Assembly (NCBI GenBank): GCA_963769825.1
Contig: CAVYNO010000019.1
Span: 29,852-93,851 of the forward strand
DNA from: an uncultured Acidimicrobiales bacterium
Lineage (GTDB): Bacteria; Actinomycetota; Acidimicrobiia; Acidimicrobiales; RAAP-2
Length of the DNA stretch: 64,000 bases
Direction of reading: 5' to 3'
Each line of letters opens with the position of its first letter. The first letter of the stretch is position 1. The notes beneath the pieces are model-generated. The model ran no database searches. It saw only the letters and a list, made by a program, of their open reading frames with translations, and was not told the origin of the DNA. The position numbers and the translations under genes were made by a program. This document shows positions 33,129 through 46,102 of the stretch, piece by piece.

Positions 33129-33253
33129 GGTCCCCCAAATGCGACGGCTCGGAGTCGCCTGCACCAACCCTAATCAACTGTCAGGAATGGTGCCGATTCT
33201 GGATCGTCTCCGATTCTGAACCAGCTCTCGAGGTCCTTCCTCTGACGACATCA

Positions 33254-33345
33254 GCGCCTGGGCCGAGGAGCGCCGGGCCGAGGAGCGCGGGGCCGAGGAA
33301 GCGCCGGGCCGAGGAAGCGCCGGGCCGAGGCGCGCCGGGCCGAGG
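33254..33345. repeat. GC-rich 15-16-bp tandem repeat GCGCCGGGCCGAGGA(A), 6 units
   Basis: Units start at 33254, 33270, 33285, 33301, 33317 and 33332. The array lies 126-217 bp upstream of the PLC start, in the ~750-bp divergent region between the PLC gene and the Tad operon. Confidence 0.9.
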
Positions 33346-33773
33346 GTGGCAATTCGGGCCAACGCGCCCGCAGAACTCCGACCACGCATCGTGGTCGGAC
33401 TGGTGCTCTATGTCACCGGGAATCCTCCGGGAAGCGGACCTTGGTTTCGTCGCTCCGCGAACGTGGAGCAAGGGGGAACCGGTGACCGTGCCGGTGTCAA
33501 CACCGTGGGCAACAGCCTGGTATGCGGCACGACGGCCCATCTGGGCTCTCACTGATCGCAGAGCCGGAAATCTCAGTCGTACCAACGAGAAATTGGGTAG
33601 CCGCCGGAAGCGCTGAAGAGTGAGACATGTCGACAAACGGTTCGGTGCAAGGTATTGACCAAGGCCCCGGCAAGGTCGTGGCTTCACACTGGACCGGTGC
33701 TCGTTGGACCGCGTTGTGACGGCGACGATCGCCGCGTCGTGCACCCGACCGCGGCGAGAAATGAACAAAGTAG

Positions 33774-33790: not shown

Positions 33791-33881
33791 TCAATCTTGC
33801 GTCGAATCTAGGTCGCTCTTATCGTCCGCCCCTCATGATTCGGCACCGCATCGATGGGCCCGTCACGTATGGGCAGGGAGT

Positions 33882-34820
33882 GTGAGGCGATCAGTGCGGC
33901 GCGGCGTGAGGATTGCGGCCATGGTGGCAGGGGTGGGGCCACTCCTCGTTCTCACCGCAGGCCCTTCGTCGGGCTCGGCCTCGGGCGGAGAAGGTCCTGG
34001 TGGCACCGTCACTGTCGGGGCTTCCGCGGGAGCATCATCGGGCGGTAGTCCCGGCAACCCCGCTGGACCAGGTGGGTCCAGCGGCGCCAATAGCGGGTCG
34101 GGTGGTTCTCCGTGGTCTTGCACGTACATGCCGCTCGGGCTCAACGATCAAGCTCTTCCACCCGGTGGTCCGACGCCCGGGGGCTGGTACTCGATGACCT
34201 GCAACGAAACCGATACGGGTGCTTCTTTTAACCGGACGCTGTGGATCTCCGCCCAGACACCCTCGCCGTCCTTGCCGACCGTCGATCCGCGTGCGCTCGC
34301 CCTCCAAGCGGAGCGATCGCTCCAACTCCCGAGGCCGGCGGTTCACTTCAATCCGCCGGGTTCGTCGGTCGTGAATCTCCCGACCTGGCTCTGGATCGAC
34401 GGTTCGATATGGCACCCGTATTCGGTCACCGCTACTGCGGGGTCTGTAACCGCCACCGCGGTAGCCACGCCGACCTTCGTCACCTGGACGATGGGGGACG
34501 GCAGCGTCGTGAACTGCGATGGTCCCGGAATGCCGTTCGATGTCTCAAGGCCGGCGGCTCAGCAGACGTCCTCGTGTGACTACGTCTATCGAATTACGTC
34601 GGCGGATCAGCGCACACCTGATGACAACCCCGACGACGCGGCATTTGGCGTGCTGGCATCGGTCTCCTGGGCCGTGGAGTGGTCAGCTCAGGGTGCACCG
34701 GGCGGTGGTGCCCTCCCCACGTTGACCACGTCGACGTTGACCGGGCTTCGGGTCGAGCAGGTGGAGAGCATCTTCGGGGCCGCTCTCGGTCCGACCTTCA
34801 CTGGAACAGCAGAGCAGTGA
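33882..34820 (+). CDS. Secreted protein of unknown function, first gene of the Tad-type operon
   Basis: ORF 33774..34820. GTG 33882 follows GGGCAGGGAG. N-terminus VRRSVRRGVRIAAMVAGVGPLLVLTAG, then a Gly/Ser/Pro-rich linker and a ~230-aa domain (…VVNLPTWLWIDGSIW…SSCDYVY…). I could not assign the domain. Confidence 0.6.
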   Translation: MRRSVRRGVRIAAMVAGVGPLLVLTAGPSSGSASGGEGPGGTVTVGASAGASSGGSPGNPAGPGGSSGANSGSGGSPWSCTYMPLGLNDQALPPGGPTPGGWYSMTCNETDTGASFNRTLWISAQTPSPSLPTVDPRALALQAERSLQLPRPAVHFNPPGSSVVNLPTWLWIDGSIWHPYSVTATAGSVTATAVATPTFVTWTMGDGSVVNCDGPGMPFDVSRPAAQQTSSCDYVYRITSADQRTPDDNPDDAAFGVLASVSWAVEWSAQGAPGGGALPTLTTSTLTGLRVEQVESIFGAALGPTFTGTAEQ

Positions 34821-35632
34821 CGTCAATCCTTGACCGGTCGTCGCCTCATGACCAACCTCGCCTGGACCTGGCGAATACGGCCCGGCTGCCACTCGTGCCC
34901 AGTGGTAGGAGGCCACTGATGATGGTCCTGTCCGCATTGCTGGTCTTCGTCAGCATCGCCGCATTCGCCAGCATCTATGTCAGGGCAAACCACAAACAAT
35001 CGGTCCTGATCGTCACGCAGACGATCGAGCAGGGTCAGCAAATCAATGGAGCCGATCTCGGATCGGTCAGCGTGTCGGCCTCCGGAGGGGCTCACCTGAT
35101 CCCGGTTACCGATGCTCAACTGCTCTCCGGACGGCGGGCTGCGGTCACCATCCCGTCCGGCTCACTGCTGGTGATGGCTGACACGACGACTGCACGAGCC
35201 ATCTCCCCAGGCGATGCCGTCGTCGGGGTGGCCTTGAAGGCAGGTCAACTTCCGTCGAGCGGTGTGGTTTCGGGGGAAACGGTGATGATCGTCGAGACCG
35301 GCGCTCCCGGGAGCCCTGTGACATCACCTGTCCAATCCTCGAGTGGCTCAGTGGGCGCAAGCTCGGGCTCGAGCTCACTGAGTGCCGGCGTCCCCGTACT
35401 CGTACCCCGCGCAACGGTGTTCGATGTTCAACCCGGATCCGGCGGGTCGAGCGGGTCCTCCGGGCTGGTCGCTCCGAGCGCGGCCCCCGACGCCGTACTG
35501 GTGTCCGTCGAAGTGTCGGACACGGACGCCCCCCTGGTGGCAACCGCTGCTGCCGTGGGTCAGGTCAGCCTGGTGCTCCTTACAGCCGGGTCGGGCGGTG
35601 GCGGCAGCACCACGGGGAACGGGCCGTCATGA
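34817..35632 (+). CDS. CpaB/RcpC-like (SAF-domain) Flp pilus assembly protein
   Basis: GTG 34817 overlaps the upstream stop (GTGA) in ORF 34679..35632. One N-terminal TM (MMVLSALLVFVSIAAFASIYV), then QTIEQGQQINGADL...IPSGSLLV (SAF-like) and a Ser/Gly-rich tail. Confidence 0.6.
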   Translation: MTSILDRSSPHDQPRLDLANTARLPLVPSGRRPLMMVLSALLVFVSIAAFASIYVRANHKQSVLIVTQTIEQGQQINGADLGSVSVSASGGAHLIPVTDAQLLSGRRAAVTIPSGSLLVMADTTTARAISPGDAVVGVALKAGQLPSSGVVSGETVMIVETGAPGSPVTSPVQSSSGSVGASSGSSSLSAGVPVLVPRATVFDVQPGSGGSSGSSGLVAPSAAPDAVLVSVEVSDTDAPLVATAAAVGQVSLVLLTAGSGGGGSTTGNGPS

Positions 35633-36576
35633 CCGTTGTCTCGTTCACTTCGGTAAAGGGGGCTCCGGGAGTCACCACCCTTTCCTGCCTTGTGTCGGCG
35701 GCTTGGCCAAGCGACCGGCGCGCGCTGCTCGTCGAAGGTGATCCGAGCGGTGGGGACCTGGCTGCGCGATTCCGGCTGTCTGCCAAGCGAGGGTGGCCCT
35801 CGTACGCCGCAGTATCCCGTCGGCTCGAGGGGCTGGAACCCATCTCCGCACACGTCCAGCAGCTCCCCGGGGGCCTGGACGTCATGGTGCGTGGGAGCTC
35901 CGACGAGCCGACTGAGAACCGTGAGGTTGTTCTGTCGCTGTTGGCGAGTGCCGAGCGCGACGAGGCAGGGAGGCGGGACGTGATCGCCGACATCGGCCGG
36001 TTGCTGCCAGGACAGCGAGGCGCCGAGCCGTGGCTCGAGCGGTCGACCACGGTCGCAGTCGTAGTGCGCCGCGACGCGGCCTCGATCCTCCATCTCCGTG
36101 ACCGCGCGATTGTGCTCCAATCCGGCTGTCGCGGCTGTGTTGGAATCGTGGTCGTTGGATCGGGACCGTTCTCTGCCCGGGACATCGAAGCGTTCACCGG
36201 GCTTCCTGTATTGGGTGAACTGCCCGACGATCCCAAGGCTGCGGAGATCGTTGGCGGTCGGGCTGGTTGCGGCTCTCGGTTGTCGCGGTCGCGGCTTGTC
36301 ATGTCCGCCTACCGGCTCGCCAACGTTCTCAGCGGCGAAGACCCGCTACTAGGGCAGTGCCCGGAGCAACCGGGCGGCGCCTCTCGAGCCTCGGCACCGC
36401 CGAGAACTGCAGAGGGGACTCTCTCGCAGGAGAATCCGAAAGATCGGTGGGAGCCGAGTGGGTCCGAGCGGACTAAGCAGCGTAAGGGGATGAGCCGGAC
36501 CATCCGCCGATCTCTCGACCGCTCGATCGCAGCAGGCCGATGGGTTCACGAGGCCGGAGGGAGGGCGCTCCGGTGA
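35629..36576 (+). CDS. TadZ/CpaE-like ParA-fold protein with a degenerate Walker A
   Basis: ORF 35629..36576, ATGA overlap. VVSFTSVKGAPGVTTLS replaces KGGxGK[ST]. ...VVVRRDAASI...VVGSGPFSARDIEAFTGLPVLGELPDDPKAA is a ParA/MinD-like layout. Confidence 0.6.
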   Translation: MTVVSFTSVKGAPGVTTLSCLVSAAWPSDRRALLVEGDPSGGDLAARFRLSAKRGWPSYAAVSRRLEGLEPISAHVQQLPGGLDVMVRGSSDEPTENREVVLSLLASAERDEAGRRDVIADIGRLLPGQRGAEPWLERSTTVAVVVRRDAASILHLRDRAIVLQSGCRGCVGIVVVGSGPFSARDIEAFTGLPVLGELPDDPKAAEIVGGRAGCGSRLSRSRLVMSAYRLANVLSGEDPLLGQCPEQPGGASRASAPPRTAEGTLSQENPKDRWEPSGSERTKQRKGMSRTIRRSLDRSIAAGRWVHEAGGRALR

Positions 36577-37991
36577 CGGACATCATCGCTATGGCCATCC
36601 GGGAGCGTGTGGCCGAAGATCTGGCCTCGCCGGCAGCAGCCGCCCTTATTGGCGACGACCGCCGCGAATACGCGCGCCGGCAGATCTTCGCCCACCTCGA
36701 CATGCTCACTGCTGAAGCCGAGCACGGGTGGGGCAGGTCCGAAAGCGGCGACGAGCAGCTGGCCCAGGAGGCCGAGCAGCACCTGGCTCAAGGGGTGCTG
36801 GATGCCTTGTTCGGGATGGGGCGGCTCCAGTCGTTGATCGATGACCCCGACATCGAGAACATCGATATCAATGGGTGCGACCGGGTATGGGCAACATTTG
36901 CCGATGGTTCGAAACGGATGATGCCCGCCGTGGCCGACAGCGACGAGGAGCTGATCGGTCTGGTGCGCTCCGCTGCCAGCCGGTTCGGCCTTTCCGAGCG
37001 GCGATTCGATTTGGCCCGACCCGAGTTGGACCTCCGCCTCAATGACGGCAGTCGCCTCTCGGCACTGATGGCGGTCACGGCGCGACCGGCCATTTCCATC
37101 CGCCGCCACCGGCTCTCGGACCTCTCGCTGTCCGATCTCAGGGCATTGGGCTCAATCGACCACGGCCTCGAATCCCTGCTCCATTCGGCCGTCCTCGCCC
37201 GGAAGAACATCATCGTCTCGGGGGCGATGAATTCTGGGAAGACAACCCTGCTCCGGGCACTCGCGTCCGAGATCCCACCCCGCGAGCGGTTGGTAACGAT
37301 CGAGCAGGCGTTTGAACTCGGACTGGACACCCCTGCACACCGCCACCCGGACATGGTTGCACTCGAGGCTCGGCAGGCCAACATGGAGGGTGCCGGCATG
37401 ATCTCCGTGGCTGATCTGGTCCGGCGCTCACTTCGCATGAATGCCGATCGGGTGATCGTGGGTGAGGTCCTTGGCGACGAGGTGCTACCCATGCTCAATG
37501 CCATGAGCCAGGGTCGATCGGGCTCGATGTGCACCATCCATGCCGATTCGTCCGCTGGTGTCTTCCGACGGATCGCCTCGTACGCGGTCCAAGCACCGGA
37601 GGGATTGCCTCTCGAGGCGAGCAACCTGTTGGTTGCCGGCGCCGTCCACTTTGTCGTGCATCTCGATTCCGATCTGCACGGATCGATGGATCGGACCGAA
37701 TTTCACGTTCAGGACTCGATCCATGATGAGGACTCCTTCGAGAGAGTCGACGATCGGGTGCAACGTGGGGAGCAGCGCTTCGGGGCGGGGGCGGCCCGGG
37801 CCAGATACATCGCGTCCGTTCGCGAGGTGGTCGACGCCGAGGGGATGCACGTCATCTCCAATGAGATCTATAGACCTGGTCCTGACGGCCGAGCTCGGGC
37901 TGCCTCGCCATTACAGCCCGCGACGCTCCGAGAGTTGACCACGTTCGGCTACGAACCGGCCGGCCCCGGCTTCCTCGACACTCGGGCATGA
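36573..37991 (+). CDS. tadA: TadA/CpaF secretion ATPase
   Basis: ORF 36540..37991. GTG 36573 overlaps the upstream stop and follows GGAGGGAGGG. DIENIDINGCDRVW, Walker A GAMNSGKTTLL, RVIVGEV (Walker B), and SGSMCTIHADS (His box). Confidence 0.9.
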   Translation: MTDIIAMAIRERVAEDLASPAAAALIGDDRREYARRQIFAHLDMLTAEAEHGWGRSESGDEQLAQEAEQHLAQGVLDALFGMGRLQSLIDDPDIENIDINGCDRVWATFADGSKRMMPAVADSDEELIGLVRSAASRFGLSERRFDLARPELDLRLNDGSRLSALMAVTARPAISIRRHRLSDLSLSDLRALGSIDHGLESLLHSAVLARKNIIVSGAMNSGKTTLLRALASEIPPRERLVTIEQAFELGLDTPAHRHPDMVALEARQANMEGAGMISVADLVRRSLRMNADRVIVGEVLGDEVLPMLNAMSQGRSGSMCTIHADSSAGVFRRIASYAVQAPEGLPLEASNLLVAGAVHFVVHLDSDLHGSMDRTEFHVQDSIHDEDSFERVDDRVQRGEQRFGAGAARARYIASVREVVDAEGMHVISNEIYRPGPDGRARAASPLQPATLRELTTFGYEPAGPGFLDTRA

Positions 37992-38839
37992 TTTCCGCTC
38001 CTGCCCTGTTGTGGAGCATTTGCTTCGGGCTCGGTGTTGTCGGGATAGCGGCCTCGTGGTCGAAGCCGTCCTCACGGCCACCGCCCGGACAGGCTGGCTC
38101 CCGCGTCGGCGCGCACGTTCGGACGAGGCTTCCGCGCCTCGGACTTGGGGTTGCCACCGGCGCGGTGGCCCTGCTGGTCACCGGCTGGCCCGCCGCCCTC
38201 CTGGTGGGCGGGGTGGCCGCGTACGGGGTTCCCATTCTCGTCAGCCGGACCTCGGGGTCGGTCTCGATCACCAAGATTGAAGCCATCGCCACCTGGACCG
38301 AGATGCTCCAGGGCACGCTTGCCGCTTCGGCGGGGCTGGGGGAGGCGATCATCGCCACTTCCTCCCTGAGTCCCCCGGTGATCAGGGGCGCGACTGTACG
38401 ACTCGCTGCCCGGCTGCGCTCGGGCATGCACCCTGGTGAGGCCTTGGTCCAGTACGCCGACGAACTAGACGACCCGTGTGCCGACCGTGTGGTGTGCGCG
38501 CTGGTGTTGGCCGTCTCCTCGCGTGTCCAACGGTTGGGCGATCTGCTAATGGCGTTGGCCGACTCGACCAGGGAGGAGGTGGCACTGCGACTGCGCGTTG
38601 AGGCCTCTCGAGCTTCGGTACGGAGCAGCGTGCGTACCGTTGTCGTGTTTTCGATCACGTTCGGCGCCGGGCTGACCCTCCTTGGTCACCGCTATCTGGC
38701 ACCGTTCGGCACAGGCCGAGGACAGCTCGTACTGCTCCTGGTCGGAGCGCTGTACGCGGCGGGCCTGAGTCTGATGACCTCGTTAGCCCGACCGCCGGCG
38801 CCCATCCGCTTGATCGGCGATGGGGCGGCGAGACGATGA
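37988..38839 (+). CDS. tadB: TadB-like type II secretion system F-family membrane protein
   Basis: ORF 37988..38839, ATGA overlap. TM segments flank a cytoplasmic T2SSF-like region (ATWTEMLQGTLAASAGLGEAI...). Confidence 0.72.
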   Translation: MISAPALLWSICFGLGVVGIAASWSKPSSRPPPGQAGSRVGAHVRTRLPRLGLGVATGAVALLVTGWPAALLVGGVAAYGVPILVSRTSGSVSITKIEAIATWTEMLQGTLAASAGLGEAIIATSSLSPPVIRGATVRLAARLRSGMHPGEALVQYADELDDPCADRVVCALVLAVSSRVQRLGDLLMALADSTREEVALRLRVEASRASVRSSVRTVVVFSITFGAGLTLLGHRYLAPFGTGRGQLVLLLVGALYAAGLSLMTSLARPPAPIRLIGDGAARR

Positions 38840-39814
38840 GCGTCGCCATCGCCATCGGGGCCCTGGTCGGGGTCGGTTGCATCGGAATGCTCCGGGGCCT
38901 CAGGACGGAGAGGCCCACGCTTGAGGCCATCGCCGCCGCCCTCGATCGTTGGTCGGATGCAGGTACTGAGCCCCATGGTCAATCCGATTCACCGAGTTCA
39001 CCCGGCTTCCTCCTTGCAACCAGCTCTCCGGTTTTGACTGGTCGGCTCGGTTTGCCACGTCCGTCCATTCGGTCCGGGAGTGTGGCGATCGTGGAGCTCA
39101 TGAACCGGTCGGCGGTCACCAAACGGTGGTGGCGGTCGCTGGGTCCCAGCTTCGCCATCACCGGGGTCTCACCCGAGCAAGTCGCCGCGAAGATGCTCGT
39201 CTTGGGCGGGACCGGTCTGCTCGCCCCGCCGTCAGCCTGGCTTATTTCAGAGATCGCCGGACTATTCCCGGTTCCTCTCGGGATACCGGCTCTCATCTCG
39301 CTCGTGGCGACCCCGTTCCTTGTGGCATTGCCCGTCATCCGCCTCGTGAGCCAAGCCCGAGAGCGACAGCACCACGCGTGCGTGGTCGTCAGCTCCTTTG
39401 TCGACTTGGTCGTTCTCAACCTGGCGGGGGGGATGGGTATCGAGAGCGCGCTGCTCGACTGCCGCTCAGGTGAGCTCGGATTGGATGGCAGAGCGAATCT
39501 CGAGATCGCTGCTGATTGCGCGGGAGGGTGGCCGACCGTCTTGGTTGGCGCTGAGCCAGTTGGGCGACGAGATCGGGGTGCCCGAGTTGGTCGAGCTATC
39601 GGCGACACTTCAACTTGCTGGCACGGAGGGATCGCGCATCCGCCAGTCGTTGAGTGCTCGTGCTATGGCCCTTCGGAGACATGAGCAGGCTGACGCCGAA
39701 ACCGCAGCCAACACGACGACCGAGCGGCTCTTCCTGCCGGGAGCGCTCCTTCTCGTCGGCTTCCTCCTCTTCGTGGGGTACCCCGCGTTCAGCCGAATTG
39801 TCGGGGGGTTCTAA
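38836..39814 (+). CDS. tadC: TadC-like type II secretion system F-family membrane protein, interrupted by a 1-nt insertion at about 39457
   Basis: ORF 38836..39684 up to ...LNLAGGMGIESALL. ORF 39398..39814 in the next frame continues TAAQVSSDWMAERISRSLLIAREGGRPSWLALSQLGDEIGVPELVEL...LFLPGALLLVGFLLFVGYPAF. Confidence 0.7.
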
Positions 39815-39880
39815 GCATCCCGCTGAATCACTTCATCGACCAGCAAGACCAATCAACAATCAAGAAGAAAGGAATTCCCA

Positions 39881-40072
39881 ATGCCCAACCAGATCGTGGC
39901 CCTCTGGACCTACCTCCGATCCCGAGCCGGAGTGTCGGGTGGATGGGATGAGACGGGAACTGTCGTCGAGAAGGTCATCCTCACTGCCATCTTCGCCGCG
40001 TTGGCCATCGCTATCGGCGCCATCATCGTAGCCAAGGTCACCGCCAAGGCGAACTCGATCAACCTCAACTGA
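39881..40072 (+). CDS. Flp-like (type IVb/Tad) prepilin candidate
   Basis: ORF 39881..40072 (63 aa), GAAAGGA RBS. Charged leader ...SGGWDETG, then TVVEKVILTAIFAALAIAIGAIIVAKV. The position between tadC and tadE matches Tad loci. Confidence 0.55.
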   Translation: MPNQIVALWTYLRSRAGVSGGWDETGTVVEKVILTAIFAALAIAIGAIIVAKVTAKANSINLN

Positions 40073-40491
40073 TGATTGGCTTTGGTGACGCTCACCTTCG
40101 CAGTGAAGTCGACCGTCGCCGAGGGGAGTGCGGCTCCGCAGCCGTCGAAACCGTCATCATCGTGCCAGTGGTCATGCTCGTCCTGGTGATCATGATCCAA
40201 ATGGTCCTGTGGGCGCACGCCGCCCAGGTCGCCCACCTTGCGGCATCAGAGGGAGCCAGGGCGGCGGTATCGGTGGGAGGTGGGGTGACCGTCGGTGCGA
40301 ACCGGGCACAGGCAGTGCTGGCGTCTTCCGGTTCGGACGTCGAGTCCCCAAACGCCTTGGCGCAGATGCTGCCCGGCGATCAGATCAGTGTGACGGTGAC
40401 CGGAAGGGCTCTGTCGCTGGTCCCCTGGCTGTCGCTCCCGGTATCTGCTACCCAAGAGGGCCCGATTCAGGAATTTCGCTCGTCCGAATGA
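40072..40491 (+). CDS. TadE-family pseudopilin-like protein
   Basis: ORF 40072..40491. RGECGSAAVETVIIVPVVMLVLVIMIQMVLW is a TadE-type N-terminus. Confidence 0.7.
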   Translation: MIGFGDAHLRSEVDRRRGECGSAAVETVIIVPVVMLVLVIMIQMVLWAHAAQVAHLAASEGARAAVSVGGGVTVGANRAQAVLASSGSDVESPNALAQMLPGDQISVTVTGRALSLVPWLSLPVSATQEGPIQEFRSSE

Positions 40492-40910
40492 AGAGGCTGG
40501 AACAAAAGGACGACCGCGGGAGCTTGACGGTTGAGCTGGTGCTACTGACGCCAGCATTGCTCATTGTCGTTCTGACCATCGTCGCGTTTGGTCGGGTCTC
40601 GGAATCGCGACAGCAGGTAGCTGAGGCGGCCGGTGCCGGCGCCGACGCTGCTGCCGTGGGTTCGGACGCCCCTCGTGCCGTCTCCGGTGCTGAGCTCGAT
40701 GCGAGAGCCGAAGTCGCCGGCCATCTACACACCTGCGGAAATCCCCAAATCGACACGGATACCAGTCACTTCTACCCCGGTGGGTTCGTGACTGTGACGG
40801 TGATCTGCCACATCGCTCTCTCGGACCTGCTCGTTCCCGGCATGCCGGGGAGCACCACCATCCAGGCGTCCTCGACCGCGCCCATCGATCCGTTCCGAGC
40901 GGTCGGATGA
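40488..40910 (+). CDS. TadE-family pseudopilin-like protein (second copy)
   Basis: ATG 40488 (ATGA overlap) inside ORF 40128..40910. DDRGSLTVELVLLTPALLIVVLTIVAFGRV. Confidence 0.65.
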   Translation: MKRLEQKDDRGSLTVELVLLTPALLIVVLTIVAFGRVSESRQQVAEAAGAGADAAAVGSDAPRAVSGAELDARAEVAGHLHTCGNPQIDTDTSHFYPGGFVTVTVICHIALSDLLVPGMPGSTTIQASSTAPIDPFRAVG

Positions 40911-41416
40911 GGGCTTTCTTCTCGTGGACCAGATCGGGCCCCATGTGGACCGCGACATGGTGCCTGGCCCGAAGGTCGGTCGGACTGATCGGCCTTCTAC
41001 GCCAGAGTCCGAAGTCCGACGACGGCTCCGTGACAGCGTTCGTCGCCCTGCTCTTGGTGGCGATGTTCGTACTCATGGGATTGGTACTCGACGGGGGAAC
41101 CGCCCTCAGCGCCCAACAGGCAGCGACCGACGAGGCCGAACAGGCAGCTCGGGCTGGAGCGGGCTCCTTGTCCGTCGATGCGCTGCGGGCCGGTTCGATC
41201 AAGATTGATCAGCAAGCAGCCGTCGCTGCCGCGGAGGCGTTCACCCTGGCGGCTGGTCACCCGGGTACGGCGACCGTCTCCGGGGACGTCATCAGGGTTG
41301 AGGTCCACTACCGCGTTCCCACCGACATCCTCAGCATGGTGGGCATCAAGTCGCTTCCGGTGTCGGCAGAGGCGACCGCATTCGACGTCGCCGGCGTCAC
41401 CTCGGGGTCTCCATGA
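40907..41416 (+). CDS. TadG-related (Tad_N-type) pilus assembly protein
   Basis: ORF 40907..41416, ATGA overlap. DDGSVTAFVALLLVAMFVLMGLVLDGG. Confidence 0.6.
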   Translation: MRAFFSWTRSGPMWTATWCLARRSVGLIGLLRQSPKSDDGSVTAFVALLLVAMFVLMGLVLDGGTALSAQQAATDEAEQAARAGAGSLSVDALRAGSIKIDQQAAVAAAEAFTLAAGHPGTATVSGDVIRVEVHYRVPTDILSMVGIKSLPVSAEATAFDVAGVTSGSP

Positions 41417-44400
41417 GATCGGGCGTTCCCACACAAAAGAACAGCCTCCGCCTGCGAGCCTGGATCTCCATTGCGGTCCTGGCACTGGTGGTCGCGGGCG
41501 TGCCTGCAATCTTGTTCGCAGTCGGAGGTTCGCCGTTCCGCCTGCTCGGACATTCGGTGGCTGGCAAAACGTTCACGTCTGCCCATCAGGCTGACGGCCT
41601 GCGACTGGCGACCCAGTGGCTGCTGCGGGGGGCGCTCGTGCTGGCGTGGCTTTCGTGGGCATGGGTGGCGGTATGCGTGGTTCTCGAGGCCCGATCATGG
41701 ATGACCGGGCATACTCCCGCTCGTCTGCCAGCGAGTCGGACCCTGCAGTCGGCGGTGGCCTGCCTGGTGGGAACGGCCTTGGCCGTGTCGTTGATGAGCC
41801 GCGGTCTGTCCGCGACCGAGAGCGTTGGGTCAACTGAGCGTGCCGTTGCGTCCTTGGGTCAGCTCCGGGTCCTCGAGGATCCGATGCCCTTCGGCGCACA
41901 CTCGCACGTTCCGGATCCACCGATGAGGTCTGACCACGGAACGATCGGCGTTGGTCACGGAGACGAGAAGACTTCCAGGCATGCGTCCTGGTCGCCGGCT
42001 GATCCAGGCCGATCCCCAGCTGAGGCCACCCGCATTCGAGACGATGTCGGTCCGGTGGCGCCAGATCCGCCCCGATCCCAAGGAGGGTCCGATCCGGGGC
42101 CCATTGTTTCGAATCCCGAGCTCCACCGGGTCGGCCCGAGGGAGACGCTTTGGTCTATCGCTATCGAGCGCCTTGGCACCGCTCGGCGTTGGAGAGAACT
42201 GGCACAACTGAATTATGGGGTCGTACAGCCGGACGGTGGCTCGTTGGATCTCGACCATTGGATCAAACCGGGCTGGACATTGCGGCTGCCGGGTGTGGAG
42301 GTCGCACACCGGGGGGCGGCGTTGGACGCAACAGCCCCGCAACGCAAGCGAGGACTCCGAGCCGGTCAGGCTGGCTACCTACTCCGAACGGATGCCGCGA
42401 TCGTGCCGGTAGCTGGCTCTGACTCCGGCAACGTCGTTCGGTCGAGTTCTGCCCGAGCTCTTGCCCGAGTCCCTGTTGTCCCCGTTGTCCCTGTTGTCCC
42501 TGTTGTCCCCGTTGTCCCCGTTGTCCCCGTCGTCCACCGATCGTCGGAGGATTCGGAGACGAAATCACCGGGTGCCTCGGACAAGGGAGACGGGGTCCAC
42601 GTGTCTGACGATCCCGATGCACCGGCCAATCCCAGACAACCCGTTGTACCTGTCGGAGCCGGCGTAGTTGGCGCGGGCGTGGCAAATCTCCTGGACCGAA
42701 TGAGACGGGCGCAGCAGCGTCACCGTCAGGGAGGTATGTACATCCCGCTGCCCGGTCCCGATCATCGGCGATTCGAGCAGCGGCTCCGCATCGGCGATGC
42801 GCAGAGCATCCCGAGGGACGTGGACCTGTCCCTGCGTCTTTTGGCCCAGTGGTGGCGTGAGACTGGTCAACGGACATCAGAGATCTCAGGAGTGATCGTC
42901 AATCCCGAGTCCATTGCAGTGATCGTTGCCGATATTGACGCCTCGGCCGATCGTCCCCCATATGTGTCCACAGGTGAGGACGGACGATCGTTGTTGCTCG
43001 ACCGGGCAGGGTTATCCGACCTCACGAATGAACCTCCTGACCTGACCCACGCAGCCGGAATGCGCGCGCCAGTACCTGCATTGGTGACCGCCGGCCACGG
43101 CGAGTCTGGAATCGTCATGATCAATCTGGAGACCGTCGGCTCACTCGCGATACGTGGGGATCAGGAGGCCTGCGACGGCTTTGTCCGGGCACTGGCATTG
43201 GAACTCGCTACCTCTTGGTGGTCAGACCAATTCGAGCTGCTGCTGGTTGGGTTCGGGGCTGAACTCGAGCGCTTCGATCGGGTGAGCGCCGAGAAGGACG
43301 TGTCGGGGCTGGTCAGGAAGCTGTGCGTCCGCCGTGTGCAGGGAAGCGAGCAATTGGAGTCATTCGGCCTCGACCGGTTCTACGAAGCACGCGGCACCAC
43401 CGGATCCGACGAATGGGACCCGATCGTGGTGGTCTGCGGCCCGGCAATGGATCCGGCCGATCTGGCGGCCCTGGTAGATGCCGCCTCGGACTCCAGGACG
43501 GGAGCCGCCATCGTCGTCTGCGGGGACGTGTCGGGTGCCACCCACCAGGTGACGCTCGACGGAGCGCAGCGCGGGGTTTGGCTCTCTGTTCTGGGCTCGA
43601 TGTTCCTGCCCCAACAGGTCGGGCCCAACGAGTTGACTTCCGCATCTTCGTTGGTGGAGACAGCGGTGAGGCGCGAGTCGGTGCTCTCGTCAGACGAGCC
43701 CTATGTCAGCCTTCCAATCGCCATGCCGGCTCCAGTCGGCAGTCAGACGGTCTCGCTACCTGCCGGCAATGGAACCCGCGATACCGACGTCAGCCGAACC
43801 AGACCCGTCAGCACCGACCGGTCGCCCGCGAACACCGGTGTCGAGGTGGCTGTCCTTGGGCCCGTCGAGATTCGGGGTGCAGATCGAGAGTTCACCAGAG
43901 CCTGGGCCAGGGAGCTGGTCGTCTACTTGGCCATGCATCCCAACGGCGCGTCGAACGACTCATGGGCCACCGCGCTGTGGCCGGACCGGGCCATGGCTCC
44001 TTCCAGTCTTCATTCCACTGCTTCGGTGGCACGCCGCGCACTTGGTCAAGCAGTTGGCGGCCAGGACCATCTACCTCGGTCGCACGGCCGGCTGCAGCTC
44101 TCGAATTCGGTGACAACCGATTGGGACCGCTTCGTGCGGCTGGCTGACTCCCCCGACCCGGAAGAGTGGCGATCGGCGCTCCAGCTGATCAGGGGTCGAC
44201 CGTTTGAAGGATTGCGGTCGACCGACTGGCCCATCCTCGAAGGAATCGGGCCGGCGATCGAAGCGGCCGTCGTCGACCTGAGCGGCCGGTTGGCCGGCGC
44301 ATACCTAGCTGCTAATCGGCCGCAGGACGCGCAGTGGGCCGCTCGCAAGGGATTGTTGGTGAGCCCGTATGACGAACGGCTGTACCGGATGCTGATGCGA

Positions 44401-44580
44401 ACGGCCGATCTCGCCGGTCATCCCGCCGGCGTCGAGTCAGTTATGGGCGAGCTCATCAGACTGGTAGCGGCCGAGGTCGAGCCGTTCGATTCGATTCATC
44501 CGGCCACGGTCGACCTGTACCGATCACTCAGCCGGCGGCGCAGTCTGGATCCGGCTGCCCGCCACGGTGGCGACCGATGA
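41413..44580 (+). CDS. Large membrane protein: N-terminal TM segments, LysM domain, (PVV)7 repeat, unassigned central domain, C-terminal SARP winged-helix + BTAD domain
   Basis: ORF 41413..44580, ATGA overlap with the TadG-like gene. TM-like AWISIAVLALVVAGVPAILFAV, ALVLAWLSWAWVAVCVVL and AVACLVGTALAVSLM. LysM: HRVGPRETLWSIAIERLGTARRWRELAQLNYG...IKPGWTLRLP. SARP/BTAD: VEVAVLGPVEIRGADREFTRAWARELVVYLAMHPNGASNDSWATALWPD...LIRGRPFEGL...SPYDERLYRMLMRTADLAGHPAGV. Confidence 0.8.
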   Translation: MRSGVPTQKNSLRLRAWISIAVLALVVAGVPAILFAVGGSPFRLLGHSVAGKTFTSAHQADGLRLATQWLLRGALVLAWLSWAWVAVCVVLEARSWMTGHTPARLPASRTLQSAVACLVGTALAVSLMSRGLSATESVGSTERAVASLGQLRVLEDPMPFGAHSHVPDPPMRSDHGTIGVGHGDEKTSRHASWSPADPGRSPAEATRIRDDVGPVAPDPPRSQGGSDPGPIVSNPELHRVGPRETLWSIAIERLGTARRWRELAQLNYGVVQPDGGSLDLDHWIKPGWTLRLPGVEVAHRGAALDATAPQRKRGLRAGQAGYLLRTDAAIVPVAGSDSGNVVRSSSARALARVPVVPVVPVVPVVPVVPVVPVVHRSSEDSETKSPGASDKGDGVHVSDDPDAPANPRQPVVPVGAGVVGAGVANLLDRMRRAQQRHRQGGMYIPLPGPDHRRFEQRLRIGDAQSIPRDVDLSLRLLAQWWRETGQRTSEISGVIVNPESIAVIVADIDASADRPPYVSTGEDGRSLLLDRAGLSDLTNEPPDLTHAAGMRAPVPALVTAGHGESGIVMINLETVGSLAIRGDQEACDGFVRALALELATSWWSDQFELLLVGFGAELERFDRVSAEKDVSGLVRKLCVRRVQGSEQLESFGLDRFYEARGTTGSDEWDPIVVVCGPAMDPADLAALVDAASDSRTGAAIVVCGDVSGATHQVTLDGAQRGVWLSVLGSMFLPQQVGPNELTSASSLVETAVRRESVLSSDEPYVSLPIAMPAPVGSQTVSLPAGNGTRDTDVSRTRPVSTDRSPANTGVEVAVLGPVEIRGADREFTRAWARELVVYLAMHPNGASNDSWATALWPDRAMAPSSLHSTASVARRALGQAVGGQDHLPRSHGRLQLSNSVTTDWDRFVRLADSPDPEEWRSALQLIRGRPFEGLRSTDWPILEGIGPAIEAAVVDLSGRLAGAYLAANRPQDAQWAARKGLLVSPYDERLYRMLMRTADLAGHPAGVESVMGELIRLVAAEVEPFDSIHPATVDLYRSLSRRRSLDPAARHGGDR
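42469..42531 (+). repeat. 9-bp in-frame tandem repeat GTCCC(T/C)GTT x7 encoding (VPV/PVV)7
   Basis: Units run from 42469 to 42531. The protein reads RVPVVPVVPVVPVVPVVPVVPVVHRS. Confidence 0.9.
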
Positions 44581-44743: not shown

Positions 44744-45895
44744 TCATGGACTGGGTGCCGGCGGTGGTCGTTGGTTCCGCAGCCGGTTGTGGAAGGCGCA
44801 GAGCACGCGCCCGTTCTCCTGGACGGTGAGGCCACCGGCGGCGTGGGGCAGGATGTGGTCGACGTCGCAGTCGCAGGCCGGCCTGTCGCAGTAGGGGTGG
44901 GTGCACTCCCGATCCCGTAGTTCGATGGCCCGGCGGGTGGCCCCGGTGAACAGGCGGGCGGTGGCGCTGACCTCGACCCGGCGGTCGGGCTTGAACACGG
45001 CCCGCTCCAGATAGGCCGCATCCAGCCAGGGGAGGAGGGACCCCGGCGAGATGGCCAGGCCTTGGGCCAGCTCACAGATCCGTCCCTGGGCCGTCGACGG
45101 CCAGTCCACCAGCACGCTGAACAACGGGGCGGGGCGGCGCCCACCCTCGGGGGCGGTCCGGGAGCGGGTGGCCATCTCGACCAGGGCGTCGGCCCGGCGC
45201 TGGCCCGGGGTCCGGCTGAGCTCGCCGAGCGTCGGGTCCCGTCCGAGCGAGGTGCGGGCCGCCGCCCAGTCGGCCTCGAACAGCTCGCCCTCCAGGCGCT
45301 CGAGCTCCCCGCTGACGATGGCCCCGGCGATGGGATCGAGGGTCATCTTGCCCAGCCACAGGCCGGCGAAGCTGGCCTCGAGGTAGACCTGGCGCCGGGA
45401 GCGGCGGGCCTCGGCCTCCTCCTCGGTGCCGTCCGGGTCGGCCAGCTGCTCCCAGTAGGCGACGGCCCGGACGAAGGACTCGTAGCGCAGCGTGCGGGCC
45501 TGGTCGACCAACAGGGCCTCGTCCCGGTCGAGGGCCGCCTCGGTGGCCGGCCGACGCAGGGCGGCGATGGTGTCGACGTGGGCCCCGCTGATCTCCCCGG
45601 CCGACCAGGCCCTCGCACAGGCCGGGAGGTGGGACAGGACCCGGCCCCGGCGCACCAGCCGCCGGGCCTGGGCCTTGGGCAGCCGGCACCGGGTGGCCAA
45701 CCAGGCCGCCGAGTTGCGTGCCCCGTCGGGGGCCCACCCCTCCGAGGCGTCGAAGGCGGCAGTGGCGTTGGTGACGAAGGACTCGAGGCGGGCCAGCTCA
45801 TGCTGGAGGACCTCCATCGACTCGGCATCGCCATAGGCCGACGGGTCCATCCCGACCAGCCCATCGATTGCCGAAGAAAGGGCTTCGAGTTCCAC
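44744..45895 (-). CDS. DUF222-domain HNH endonuclease (13E12-repeat-family type)
   Basis: ORF 44744..46021. C-terminal CTHPYCDRPACDCDVDHILPHAAGGLTVQENGRVLCAFHNRLRNQ (HNH). The N-terminal DUF222-like region begins ...LEALSSAIDGLVGMDPSAYGD. GTG 45895 is preferred, though the longest ORF reaches 46021. Confidence 0.8.
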   Translation of the reverse strand: MELEALSSAIDGLVGMDPSAYGDAESMEVLQHELARLESFVTNATAAFDASEGWAPDGARNSAAWLATRCRLPKAQARRLVRRGRVLSHLPACARAWSAGEISGAHVDTIAALRRPATEAALDRDEALLVDQARTLRYESFVRAVAYWEQLADPDGTEEEAEARRSRRQVYLEASFAGLWLGKMTLDPIAGAIVSGELERLEGELFEADWAAARTSLGRDPTLGELSRTPGQRRADALVEMATRSRTAPEGGRRPAPLFSVLVDWPSTAQGRICELAQGLAISPGSLLPWLDAAYLERAVFKPDRRVEVSATARLFTGATRRAIELRDRECTHPYCDRPACDCDVDHILPHAAGGLTVQENGRVLCAFHNRLRNQRPPPAPSP

Positions 45896-46102
45896 GAGGC
45901 CCAGTCCACACCCCCGGTGTGACACCGTCGGGCAGACGGTGACGATGCGGAACGGCCACGGCAACTGCGATCCAACACCGCCAACCGATGACCGATCACA
46001 GCCGACCGTTGCACTGGTCATCGTGCCATGCCGGGCTGAGACTCGAGATCGAGTCTTTCGGACCTTCGGGCGAGTGTCGGACCCCGGGCGGAGCCCGAGA
46101 GG

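Follow-up and report, generated by a model that had tools for sequence, protein, structure and literature searches.

A conserved tad operon protein of an uncultured Acidimicrobiales bacterium is predicted to combine a LysM domain, a degenerate FtsK-like fold and a SARP module behind membrane anchors

The 64,000-nucleotide stretch analyzed here (the window, to whose numbering all positions refer unless stated otherwise) comes from an uncultured Acidimicrobiales bacterium and carries an operon for a Tad-type pilus. Near the 3' end of this operon lies an open reading frame (ORF) of 1,055 codons with an ATG start, whose product, which we call the giant, is predicted to join transmembrane (TM) segments, a LysM domain, a degenerate P-loop domain and a DNA-binding module of the SARP type in one polypeptide (Table 1). 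The genes flanking the operon encode a phosphoesterase, a DUF222 protein and a luciferase-like oxidoreductase and are unrelated to it; the giant gene is therefore its last member. Among 5.8 billion proteins searched, 161 homologues were found, about 950 to 1,100 amino acids (aa) long and mostly from Acidimicrobiales metagenome-assembled genomes (MAGs), with a top E value of 1e-272, so the ORF is not a chance occurrence. The gene directly 5' encodes a 169-aa protein that matches the Pfam Tad/TadE pseudopilin families, and its stop codon overlaps the start codon of the giant gene. From this overlap, an earlier note made from the sequence alone had argued that the giant is produced stoichiometrically with pilus parts. 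The overlap itself stands, but it indicates co-transcription and possible translational coupling rather than stoichiometry. Nor is it universal, as gaps take its place in three of the related loci (L002, L004 and L088).

Single-sequence searches gave thin support for the domains of the giant. Against Pfam, the full-length protein produced only sub-threshold matches (BTAD at 18.8 bits against a gathering threshold of 22.1, LysM at E = 0.27), and an NCBIfam scan found no match. Profiles and structure were therefore needed to establish domain identity. We used an alignment of 62 family members as a profile against PDB sequences, built a second profile (the SARP profile) from the C-terminal 250 aa of the family, and obtained an AlphaFold2 model of the full-length protein with a mean predicted local distance difference test score (pLDDT) of 75.6. 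The full-length family profile matched only LysM. The confident parts of the model are the TM helices, a LysM unit at residues 236 to 292, a helix at 418 to 436, a domain at 440 to 780, and a winged helix plus helical domain at 805 to 1045, while residues 129 to 231, 298 to 414 and 783 to 804 are predicted to be disordered. Distant full-length homologues exceed the Pfam gathering thresholds for both LysM and BTAD, and homologues carry generic names such as "DNA-binding SARP family transcriptional activator," "BTAD domain-containing putative transcriptional regulator" and "LysM peptidoglycan-binding domain-containing protein." Identity to the query is highest in the winged helix (68%), BTAD (65%) and the fourth TM segment with its adjoining motif (62%), lower in the central domain (36%), and lowest in the linkers (16 to 18%). 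All of the parts that the earlier note had listed, namely three N-terminal hydrophobic helices, LysM, a proline/valine repeat, a fourth hydrophobic stretch (PVVPVGAGVVGAGVANLL) and a C-terminal SARP module, are found.

The C-terminal module is the most conserved part of the giant and, by profile and model, is an OmpR-type winged helix directly followed by BTAD, the arrangement by which SARPs are recognized. The SARP profile matched EmbR (E = 4.8e-9, profile positions 9 to 235) and AfsR (E = 4.9e-5) with both the winged helix and BTAD spanned, and Foldseek aligned the C terminus of the model to EmbR (2ff4) and AfsR (8hvr and 8k60), with a target-normalized TM-score of 0.67 for AfsR. When the C terminus was searched in isolation, BTAD (PF03704) rose to 22.8 bits, just above the threshold of 22.1, and 12 of 12 family members matched this family (best E = 7.4e-15). 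A phmmer search with the SARP region alone returned no match, and TcpP, CadC and ToxR appeared in the SARP-profile search only at non-significant E values of 0.03 to 0.18. These results bear out the placement of a winged helix and BTAD at about aa 800 to 1055. The recognition helix, SSLHSTASVARRxLG, is invariant in 56 loci; together with the conservation of the whole module, this argues for a constrained, specific interaction surface. A variant recognition helix, ASLHSTASAARR, occurs in 11 loci that form one subclade. The winged helix of the giant is also the sole recognizable DNA-binding domain in the conserved Acidimicrobiales operon.

The central region, which the earlier note had left unassigned over some 330 aa, can now be given a fold. 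In the AlphaFold2 model it forms a compact alpha/beta domain (residues 440 to 780, pLDDT >90), and in a Foldseek search against the PDB the center of the full-length model matched the FtsK motor, the conjugative coupling protein TcpA and the type VII ATPases EccC and EssC. Among these structural matches is the degenerate EccC5 "DUF" domain (8rin). A separate model of aa 428 to 800 (pLDDT 87) matched TcpA (6o1w, E = 5.3e-9) and FtsK (2ius, E = 1.2e-7) with a Foldseek probability of 1.00; these alignments extend over 365 to 410 columns and hence include the alpha as well as the RecA-like beta subdomain. EccC and EssC domains superimpose with a root-mean-square deviation of 5 to 7 Å over 240 to 275 columns. 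The structural models thus point to a P-loop fold of the FtsK-HerA type. At the sequence level, the central domain has no Pfam or NCBIfam match, and its profile returned no PDB sequence even at E ≤ 10. An hhalign comparison with Escherichia coli FtsK was weak (probability 1.4%) and served solely to locate Walker A: the GTTGSGKS motif of FtsK lies opposite GDQEACDG, which follows the strand where the fold match predicts the P-loop. Across the family, the leading glycine of this motif is invariant and Glu or Asp takes the place of the lysine in 51 of the 62 sequences, while the "DE" position of Walker B is Cys-Gly. Given the loss of the Walker A lysine and the Walker B acids, the domain is predicted to be a pseudo-ATPase throughout the family. 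A dead FtsK-like fold opens scaffold and DNA-handling explanations that were absent from the earlier account, and we return to both below.

How the giant sits in the membrane determines which of these domains could meet DNA. The model places N-terminal helices at residues 9 to 38, 62 to 98 and 108 to 131. The third TM segment has a Kyte-Doolittle hydropathy of 1.71, and the fourth is weak (1.39 over 19 aa, with an approximate apparent insertion free energy of about +9); its modeled helix is confined to residues 418 to 436. In 45 of 62 family members the same segment reaches at least 1.6, and distant homologues have an unambiguous TM helix at this place (e.g., AGLGALLAAGIIALLALRRGAQQRRRR, hydropathy 2.2 to 2.4). 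Both this segment and the DRMRRxQQRHRxxG motif behind it hardly vary and rank with the best-conserved parts of the family. Across the 62 sequences, lysine plus arginine per residue is 0.20 in the N terminus, 0.22 in loop 2 and 0.31 after the fourth segment, all predicted to be cytoplasmic, compared with 0.08 in loop 1, 0.10 after the third segment and 0.07 before the fourth, all predicted to be external. This is the pattern expected of a protein with a cytoplasmic N terminus, four spans and a cytoplasmic C terminus. We therefore consider it quite probable that LysM lies outside the cytoplasmic membrane and that the pseudo-ATPase and SARP modules lie inside. The ToxR-like topology proposed in the earlier note thus gains support from the conservation of the fourth segment, its hydrophobicity in distant homologues and the positive-inside statistics.

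The LysM domain itself is recognizable from both model and sequence. AlphaFold2 builds the expected beta-alpha-alpha-beta unit (strands at 236 to 239 and 289 to 292, helices at 246 to 254 and 257 to 267, pLDDT 90 to 95), and the best LysM match of the family profile among PDB sequences is TsaP (E = 1.3e-7). On either side lies a disordered, proline-rich and poorly conserved linker of about 100 aa. Held between such linkers, a LysM domain resembles a wall anchor no less than a sensor. Nothing we found speaks specifically for the cell-wall sensing that the earlier note had suggested, and we regard wall sensing by the giant as speculation.

The giant's architecture is not rare. At least 511 GTDB species genomes encode a relative, and the best 80 of these 511 are all Acidimicrobiales or other Actinomycetota MAGs. 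A HMMER search with the central domain collected at least 1,368 clusters at 50% identity (E ≤ 1e-3), and in full-length matches the domain sits at about aa 350 to 750 of proteins of about 1,000 aa; shorter matches look like partial gene calls. Based on the number of clusters and the constant position of the central domain, the four-module architecture appears to be ancient and stable. By tblastn against the PLSDB collection, relatives also occur on 177 plasmids, of which 135 are from Streptomyces, followed by Curtobacterium, Micrococcus, Microbacterium, Cutibacterium, Clavibacter and others.

Genomic context is equally constant. When the Tad proteins of the window were used as tblastn queries against 85 loci, the TadG-like gene was found in 80 and TadA in 75, and a complete colinear tad operon lies immediately 5' of the giant gene in almost every locus with enough flanking sequence. 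In about 75 of 80 Acidimicrobiales loci, the TadG-like gene is the direct 5' neighbor of the giant gene. The same gene order, with a 4-nt overlap here too, is seen in an Acidimicrobiia genome (L001), and it recurs in Sinomonas, a Limnocylindria (Chloroflexota) MAG (L003) and another NCBI assembly (L004). On Streptomyces (L088) and Micrococcus (L087) plasmids, the giant gene again follows tadG-like genes and is itself followed by an A24 prepilin peptidase gene. The tight link to the pilus operon noted earlier therefore holds across orders, in a second phylum and on plasmids.

Some of these loci have features of their own. In the Limnocylindria MAG (L003, 7586-14145), the tad operon and giant gene adjoin genes for TcpC, TcpE, a VirB4-like AAA_10 protein, TrbL and cell wall hydrolases, and on the Streptomyces linear plasmid (L088, 1-4400) they adjoin a lytic transglycosylase/C40 peptidase beside a large hypothetical protein. 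Such conjugation-type neighbors hint that the locus is mobile or that the pili and DNA transfer are connected. On the Micrococcus luteus plasmid pSGAir0127 (L087, 11894-15372), the giant is annotated as overlapping coding sequences of 903 aa and 256 aa. The division between them lies just 5' of the SARP module, and the 256-aa product aligns to the winged helix and BTAD of the window protein. We considered whether this plasmid encodes a free SARP and rejected the idea, since the orthologue on pLMV7 of Micrococcus sp. V7 is intact at 1,210 aa and the split is probably a frameshift.

We found no functional study of the giant family in the literature searched. Its sole mention there is a table entry for the Tad locus of the Cutibacterium acnes plasmid pIMPLE-HL096PA1, in which PAGK_2369 is listed with Pfam "LysM, BTAD" and labeled "TadB" (Table 2 of PMC3666418).

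The earlier note had also pointed to a palindrome, TTGCACA-N3-TGTGCAA, as a possible target of the SARP module. This element (TTGCACAGGGTGTGCAA) is present and unique in the window. Allowing two mismatches, one match is observed against a mean of 1.15 per 64 kb in shuffled sequence; at this chance-level count, presence in the window alone proves nothing. Comparison among loci is more informative. The best score for TTGCAC-N5-GTGCAA in the approximately 1 kb 5' of the operon is at least 11 of 12 in 27 of 69 loci and at least 10 of 12 in 38 of 69, whereas none of 73 control windows reaches 11 and four score 10. Aligned on the palindrome, 28 loci show a fixed layout, (T)AGTTGCAC-N5-GTGCAA, 6 nt, TTGCnn, about 17 nt, TA(T/G)(C/G)GT, about 9 nt and ATG. 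In three loci (L022, L026 and L034), both half-sites change together, to TTGCAG...CTGCAA, which fits a binding protein with two-fold symmetry. A hairpin would keep its pairing equally well, yet the TTGCA core is constant and the element lies 5' of the -35 hexamer, and for these reasons we read the palindrome as a probable operator at the usual position of an activator site. A terminator-like call on the palindrome was rejected because the stem sequence itself is conserved, it lies 5' of the -35 and the neighboring gene is divergent. The palindrome is thus a conserved cis-element at the putative tad promoter. A simple sigma-70 scanner did not call this promoter, and we infer its function from conservation. 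The palindrome is missing from all 11 loci that carry the variant recognition helix; their promoter is a different one and is accompanied by a hairpin in the 5' untranslated region.

The surroundings of this promoter yielded several further observations. The conserved ATG (33835 in the window) starts a gene for a 197-aa lipoprotein in L001 and many other loci; we had considered this 197-aa L001 product as a candidate regulator, and its identity as a lipoprotein led us to reject it. In the window (33835-33885, 16 codons) and in L006, the same ATG opens an ORF of just 16 to 19 codons before orf348, which could be either a deletion remnant or a leader peptide. The distance of 9 nt between the -10 hexamer and this ATG suggests a leaderless or near-leaderless transcript. 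A conserved stretch of about 430 nt 5' of the palindrome, common to L006, was tested as a hidden gene and rejected, being similar in all six frames; it has no Rfam match. A non-coding block conserved at the nucleotide level (33630-33770, about 70 to 140 nt 5' of the palindrome) recurs in L006, L012, L036, L067 and L025 and may be a second regulatory site or a divergent promoter. Farther upstream, a 15-nt tandem repeat (AGCGCCGGGCCGAGG, 6 copies, 92% matches, 33253-33345) sits in a region of about 670 bp that separates the tad promoter from the divergent phosphoesterase gene and contains no credible ORF. In the variant subclade (L044, L048, L059, L063, L064 and L084), the promoter reads AGTTGCC ... 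TAGTCT about 230 nt 5' of the orf348 homologue, and the leader that follows contains a conserved hairpin, CCCCAC-N5-GTGGGG. A TGGGG-N7-CCCCA palindrome from the same subclade was discarded, as it lies inside a conserved coding region.

Among the remaining operon genes, orf348 and orf315 have no Pfam match and are each found in 72 of 85 loci; in the orf348 product, a signal or anchor sequence and a Gly/Ser-rich region accompany a globular domain. The tadC gene is frameshifted at 39455-39465. Residues 1 to 182 of L001 TadC align in the frame of 38836, and residues 183 to 299 align in the next frame (39461-39811, 76% identity). The sequence GAC-T-GCC at the break suggests a 1-nt insertion or a 2-nt deletion, and there is no homopolymer there. 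Either the assembly is wrong at this point or tadC is a pseudogene, in which case the pilus would be inactive. Beyond the operon, a DUF222 gene (44744-46021, minus strand) separates the giant gene from the luciferase-like gene. Genes of the DUF222 family are often associated with HNH endonucleases and mobile elements, and this copy looks like a local insertion, since in L001 the luciferase-like gene stands directly 3' of the giant gene.

Table 1. Positions of the giant gene, its predicted parts, the putative tad promoter and the other tad operon genes in the window
Feature	Position	Strand	Remark
Candidate operator TTGCAC-N5-GTGCAA	33774..33790	.	conserved palindrome, 6 nt 5' of -35
Putative tad promoter	33797..33825	+	-35 TTGCGT 33797-33802, 17-nt spacer, -10 TATCGT 33820-33825; from 28-locus alignment
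Remaining tad operon, orf348 to TadG-like	33835..41416	+	
orf348	33894-34820	+	secreted or membrane protein
CpaB-like	34679-35632	+	SAF-domain protein
orf315	35629-36576	+	TadZ-like position
TadA/CpaF ATPase	36540-37991	+	T2SSE
TadB	37988-38839	+	T2SSF
TadC	38836-39814	+	T2SSF, frameshifted
Flp-type pilin ORF	39881-40072	+	63 aa
TadE	40072-40491	+	
Second TadE-like	within 40128-40910	+	
TadG-like pseudopilin	40907-41416	+	
Giant gene	41413..44580	+	membrane LysM / pseudo-FtsK / SARP protein (predicted); terminal gene of tad operon
ATGA start/stop overlap	41413..41416	+	giant gene with TadG-like gene
TM1	41464..41526	+	aa 18-38; strongly hydrophobic; basic N terminus predicted cytoplasmic
TM2	41629..41685	+	aa 73-91; strongly hydrophobic; then conserved basic loop RLPASRTxQS, predicted cytoplasmic
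TM3	41740..41796	+	aa 110-128; moderately hydrophobic
LysM	42118..42291	+	aa 236-293; predicted extracytoplasmic, between disordered linkers aa 129-231 and 298-414
9-nt tandem repeat GTCCCCGTT	42469..42535	+	7.4 copies; encodes (PVV)7 in predicted external linker 2
TM4 and juxtamembrane motif	42637..42735	+	TM4 aa 409-427; invariant DRMRRxQQRHRxxG aa 428-441
FtsK/TcpA/EccC-like domain	42748..43752	+	aa 446-780; alpha+beta P-loop fold, catalytically degenerate, predicted cytoplasmic
Degenerate Walker A GDQEACDG	43156..43179	+	aa 582-589; Asp at lysine position
Degenerate Walker B strand IVVVCGP	43423..43443	+	aa 671-677; Cys-Gly replaces Asp-Glu
OmpR-type winged helix	43825..44118	+	aa 805-902
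Recognition helix SSLHSTASVARRALG	within winged helix	+	aa 863-877
BTAD	44119..44547	+	aa 903-1045; TPR-like helical domain

Taken together, these observations lead us to propose that the giant is a wall-tethered integral-membrane subunit of the Tad machine with a SARP activator output, most likely on the tad promoter, a reading to which we give a probability of roughly 45%. The sequence and structure comparisons establish the domain identities, the lost ATPase motifs, conservation throughout the family, synteny and the presence and place of the operator; topology, DNA binding, target and any signal are inferred. In this proposal, a cytoplasmic N terminus would be followed by three TM segments and an external segment of about 290 aa, whose single LysM domain, between disordered proline-rich linkers, would bind peptidoglycan. 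After the fourth TM segment and its basic juxtamembrane motif, the dead FtsK/EccC-like domain could serve in oligomerization or in docking on the cytoplasmic face of the Tad machine, and a flexible linker of 25 aa would join it to the SARP module. The winged helix and BTAD would bind DNA and recruit RNA polymerase, most likely at the tad promoter through the TTGCAC-N5-GTGCAA element beside the -35, so that expression of the pilus genes would depend on what state the machine is in or where in the envelope it sits. A role as transcription factor is plausible, and the SARP module is a reasonable candidate for the protein that binds the palindrome.

Several observations weigh against this proposal. 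Characterized SARPs bind tandem direct repeats overlapping the -35 and activate transcription, whereas the one conserved element at the tad promoter is an inverted repeat that ends 6 nt 5' of the -35. The correlation between recognition helix and operator is not independent evidence, because the 11 variant loci form one subclade. The third and fourth TM segments are just marginally hydrophobic in the giant itself. On Micrococcus plasmids, the giant gene lies inside the operon and overlaps the prepilin peptidase gene, which is more like an assembly factor. Other lineages have separate regulators at the operon head, such as a divergent helix-turn-helix gene on the M. luteus plasmid and a sigma/anti-sigma pair on the C. 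acnes plasmid (PMC3666418); the giant is therefore not obviously a dedicated regulator everywhere.

The head regulators and the invariant position 3' of the pseudopilin genes (in Actinomycetota, one Chloroflexota MAG and plasmids, often with the prepilin peptidase gene next) would suit a purely structural Tad accessory. LysM would then anchor the apparatus to the thick wall, in the manner of TsaP and FimV in type IVa pili, a ring or bridge of pseudo-FtsK domains would dock the TadA/CpaF hexamer, a TadZ-like protein or the TadB/C platform, and the winged helix and BTAD would be a protein-interaction module that plays no part in transcription. That the best LysM match is the pilus-associated TsaP, and that degenerate FtsK-like domains such as the EccC5 DUF domain among our matches scaffold type VII secretion, also agrees with this explanation. 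We nevertheless think it rather unlikely, although it is the strongest competitor: the winged helix, recognition helix included, is the most conserved segment, which is hard to explain without contacts to nucleic acid or RNA polymerase, the SARP module matches the transcription factors EmbR and AfsR over its full length, and the operon has a conserved operator and no other cognate regulator. If the FtsK resemblance is instead taken at face value, the giant could be a DNA-handling protein derived from FtsK, SpoIIIE or TraB, forming a membrane ring whose winged helix holds or guides DNA at the Tad apparatus during uptake or plasmid transfer. The order of multi-TM anchor, alpha+beta motor fold and C-terminal winged helix parallels FtsK, FtsK and TcpA are the top structural matches, and the family is common on actinobacterial plasmids (177 records). 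Genes like those of type IV secretion systems for conjugation adjoin the giant gene in L003, L088 and C. acnes plasmids (PMC5696575), and transformation of M. luteus needs tad genes (PMC4322843). However, loss of Walker A and B across the family leaves no motor, the winged helix is of the OmpR/SARP type with BTAD and not an FtsK gamma domain, the Acidimicrobiales loci are chromosomal with no conjugation genes nearby, and the M. luteus chromosomal tad clusters as described list no giant-like gene (PMC4322843). Such a role seems improbable to us.

A different topology, in which only the first two TM segments form a hairpin and everything from aa 92 onward, LysM included, is cytoplasmic, or in which three spans leave the FtsK-like and SARP domains outside, would draw on the marginal hydropathy of the third and fourth segments (1.71 and 1.39), the short modeled helix in the latter region (aa 418 to 436) and the presence of the cytoplasmic LysM protein Kbp/YgaU among the LysM matches. 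We judge it very improbable in view of the stronger hydropathy of the fourth segment in 45 of 62 members and in distant homologues, the charge bias that fits four spans, and LysM flanks that are disordered, proline-rich and poorly conserved, as expected of wall-spanning spacers. We also know of no precedent for an extracellular winged helix plus BTAD module or for an external P-loop-derived domain.

The explanations given so far are not mutually exclusive, and a scaffold that also sequesters a transcription factor underlies a more daring idea, that of a machine-integrated mechanosensory transcription factor. Here, a hexameric pseudo-FtsK ring would sit under the Tad platform with six LysM tethers in the wall, and pilus extension, retraction or load would alter the ring. 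The SARP modules might thereby be exposed, re-oriented or released, for example by cleavage in the linker at aa 781 to 804, and would in turn switch on the tad promoter, and possibly also a surface-contact regulon, through TTGCAC-N5-GTGCAA. We hold this to be a long shot. If true, the motor of a Gram-positive type IV pilus would be connected with RNA polymerase directly at the protein level, and no second messenger would be involved.

In monoderm Actinomycetota, Tad/Flp pili serve in adhesion and colonization, and in Micrococcus also in DNA uptake. To our knowledge, the secretin, TadD and Rcp proteins of diderm systems are absent from monoderm Actinomycetota, and for this reason the envelope-spanning and regulatory parts of monoderm Tad systems are poorly defined. 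One large class of such operons, which includes those on acne-associated C. acnes plasmids and on Streptomyces, Clavibacter and Micrococcus plasmids, almost always has a member of the giant family as an additional gene, and this family may couple the pilus machine to transcription. Should the giant prove to be a membrane-tethered SARP, the ToxR-like repertoire would gain a new domain combination and SARPs would extend outside antibiotic clusters; should it prove to be a scaffold, the Gram-positive Tad machine would have a candidate for its wall anchor. The predicted dead FtsK-like core, the LysM-out/SARP-in topology and the candidate operator make it experimentally tractable. New in the present analysis are the recognition of the central domain as a pseudo-FtsK, the support that comparison lends to the topology, the wide and constant synteny, and the promoter and operator architecture. 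The family itself is not categorically new, given that it is large and named by annotation pipelines and that its LysM and BTAD content was tabulated in 2013.

Comparison with known systems places the giant between several groups. With SARPs such as EmbR, AfsR, ActII-ORF4 and DnrI it shares an OmpR-type winged helix directly followed by BTAD, but known SARPs are soluble with the module at the N terminus, whereas in the giant it is C-terminal (aa 805 to 1045), behind four predicted TM helices. In the large SARP AfsR, a STAND/NB-ARC ATPase and TPRs follow the module, whereas in the giant a dead FtsK-type fold precedes it, and the direct-repeat sites of SARPs differ from the palindromic candidate operator of the giant. 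Like ToxR, TcpP and CadC, the giant is predicted to hold an extracytoplasmic domain, membrane span(s) and a cytoplasmic OmpR-type winged helix in one polypeptide, and TcpP controls a type IVb pilus operon. Those regulators have an N-terminal winged helix and one TM segment; the giant has the opposite polarity, with a C-terminal winged helix and four predicted TM segments, and adds BTAD, a 335-aa pseudo-ATPase and LysM, all encoded inside a pilus operon. With FtsK, SpoIIIE, TraB, TcpA and EccC it shares an N-terminal multi-TM anchor followed by an alpha+beta motor fold, and FtsK and TraB also end in a winged helix. Unlike the FtsK-HerA ATPases, it lacks the Walker A lysine, the Walker B acids and any sequence-level match in Pfam or the PDB, and where EccC has three domains it has one, which most resembles degenerate scaffold domains such as EccC5 DUF (8rin). 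FimV/HubP and TsaP, like the giant in its predicted placement, combine LysM outside the cytoplasmic membrane with association to a type IV filament, and FimV has a TM segment and a cytoplasmic TPR-like domain. These proteins belong to diderm type IVa systems, have no winged helix or P-loop fold, and are homologous to the giant only in LysM. A described counterpart is PAGK_2369, which likewise lies 3' of three TadE genes and contains LysM and BTAD; it is plasmid-borne, mislabeled and known from a table entry only (PMC3666418), while the window giant is chromosomal. Cutibacterium plasmids are among the tblastn matches to the giant. In C. acnes Tad plasmids, conjugation genes are adjacent, and a link between pilus and transfer apparatus has been left open (PMC5696575). 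On this comparison, the giant is best classed as a variant of the membrane-tethered winged-helix regulators and, equally, an uncharacterized accessory of monoderm Tad systems.

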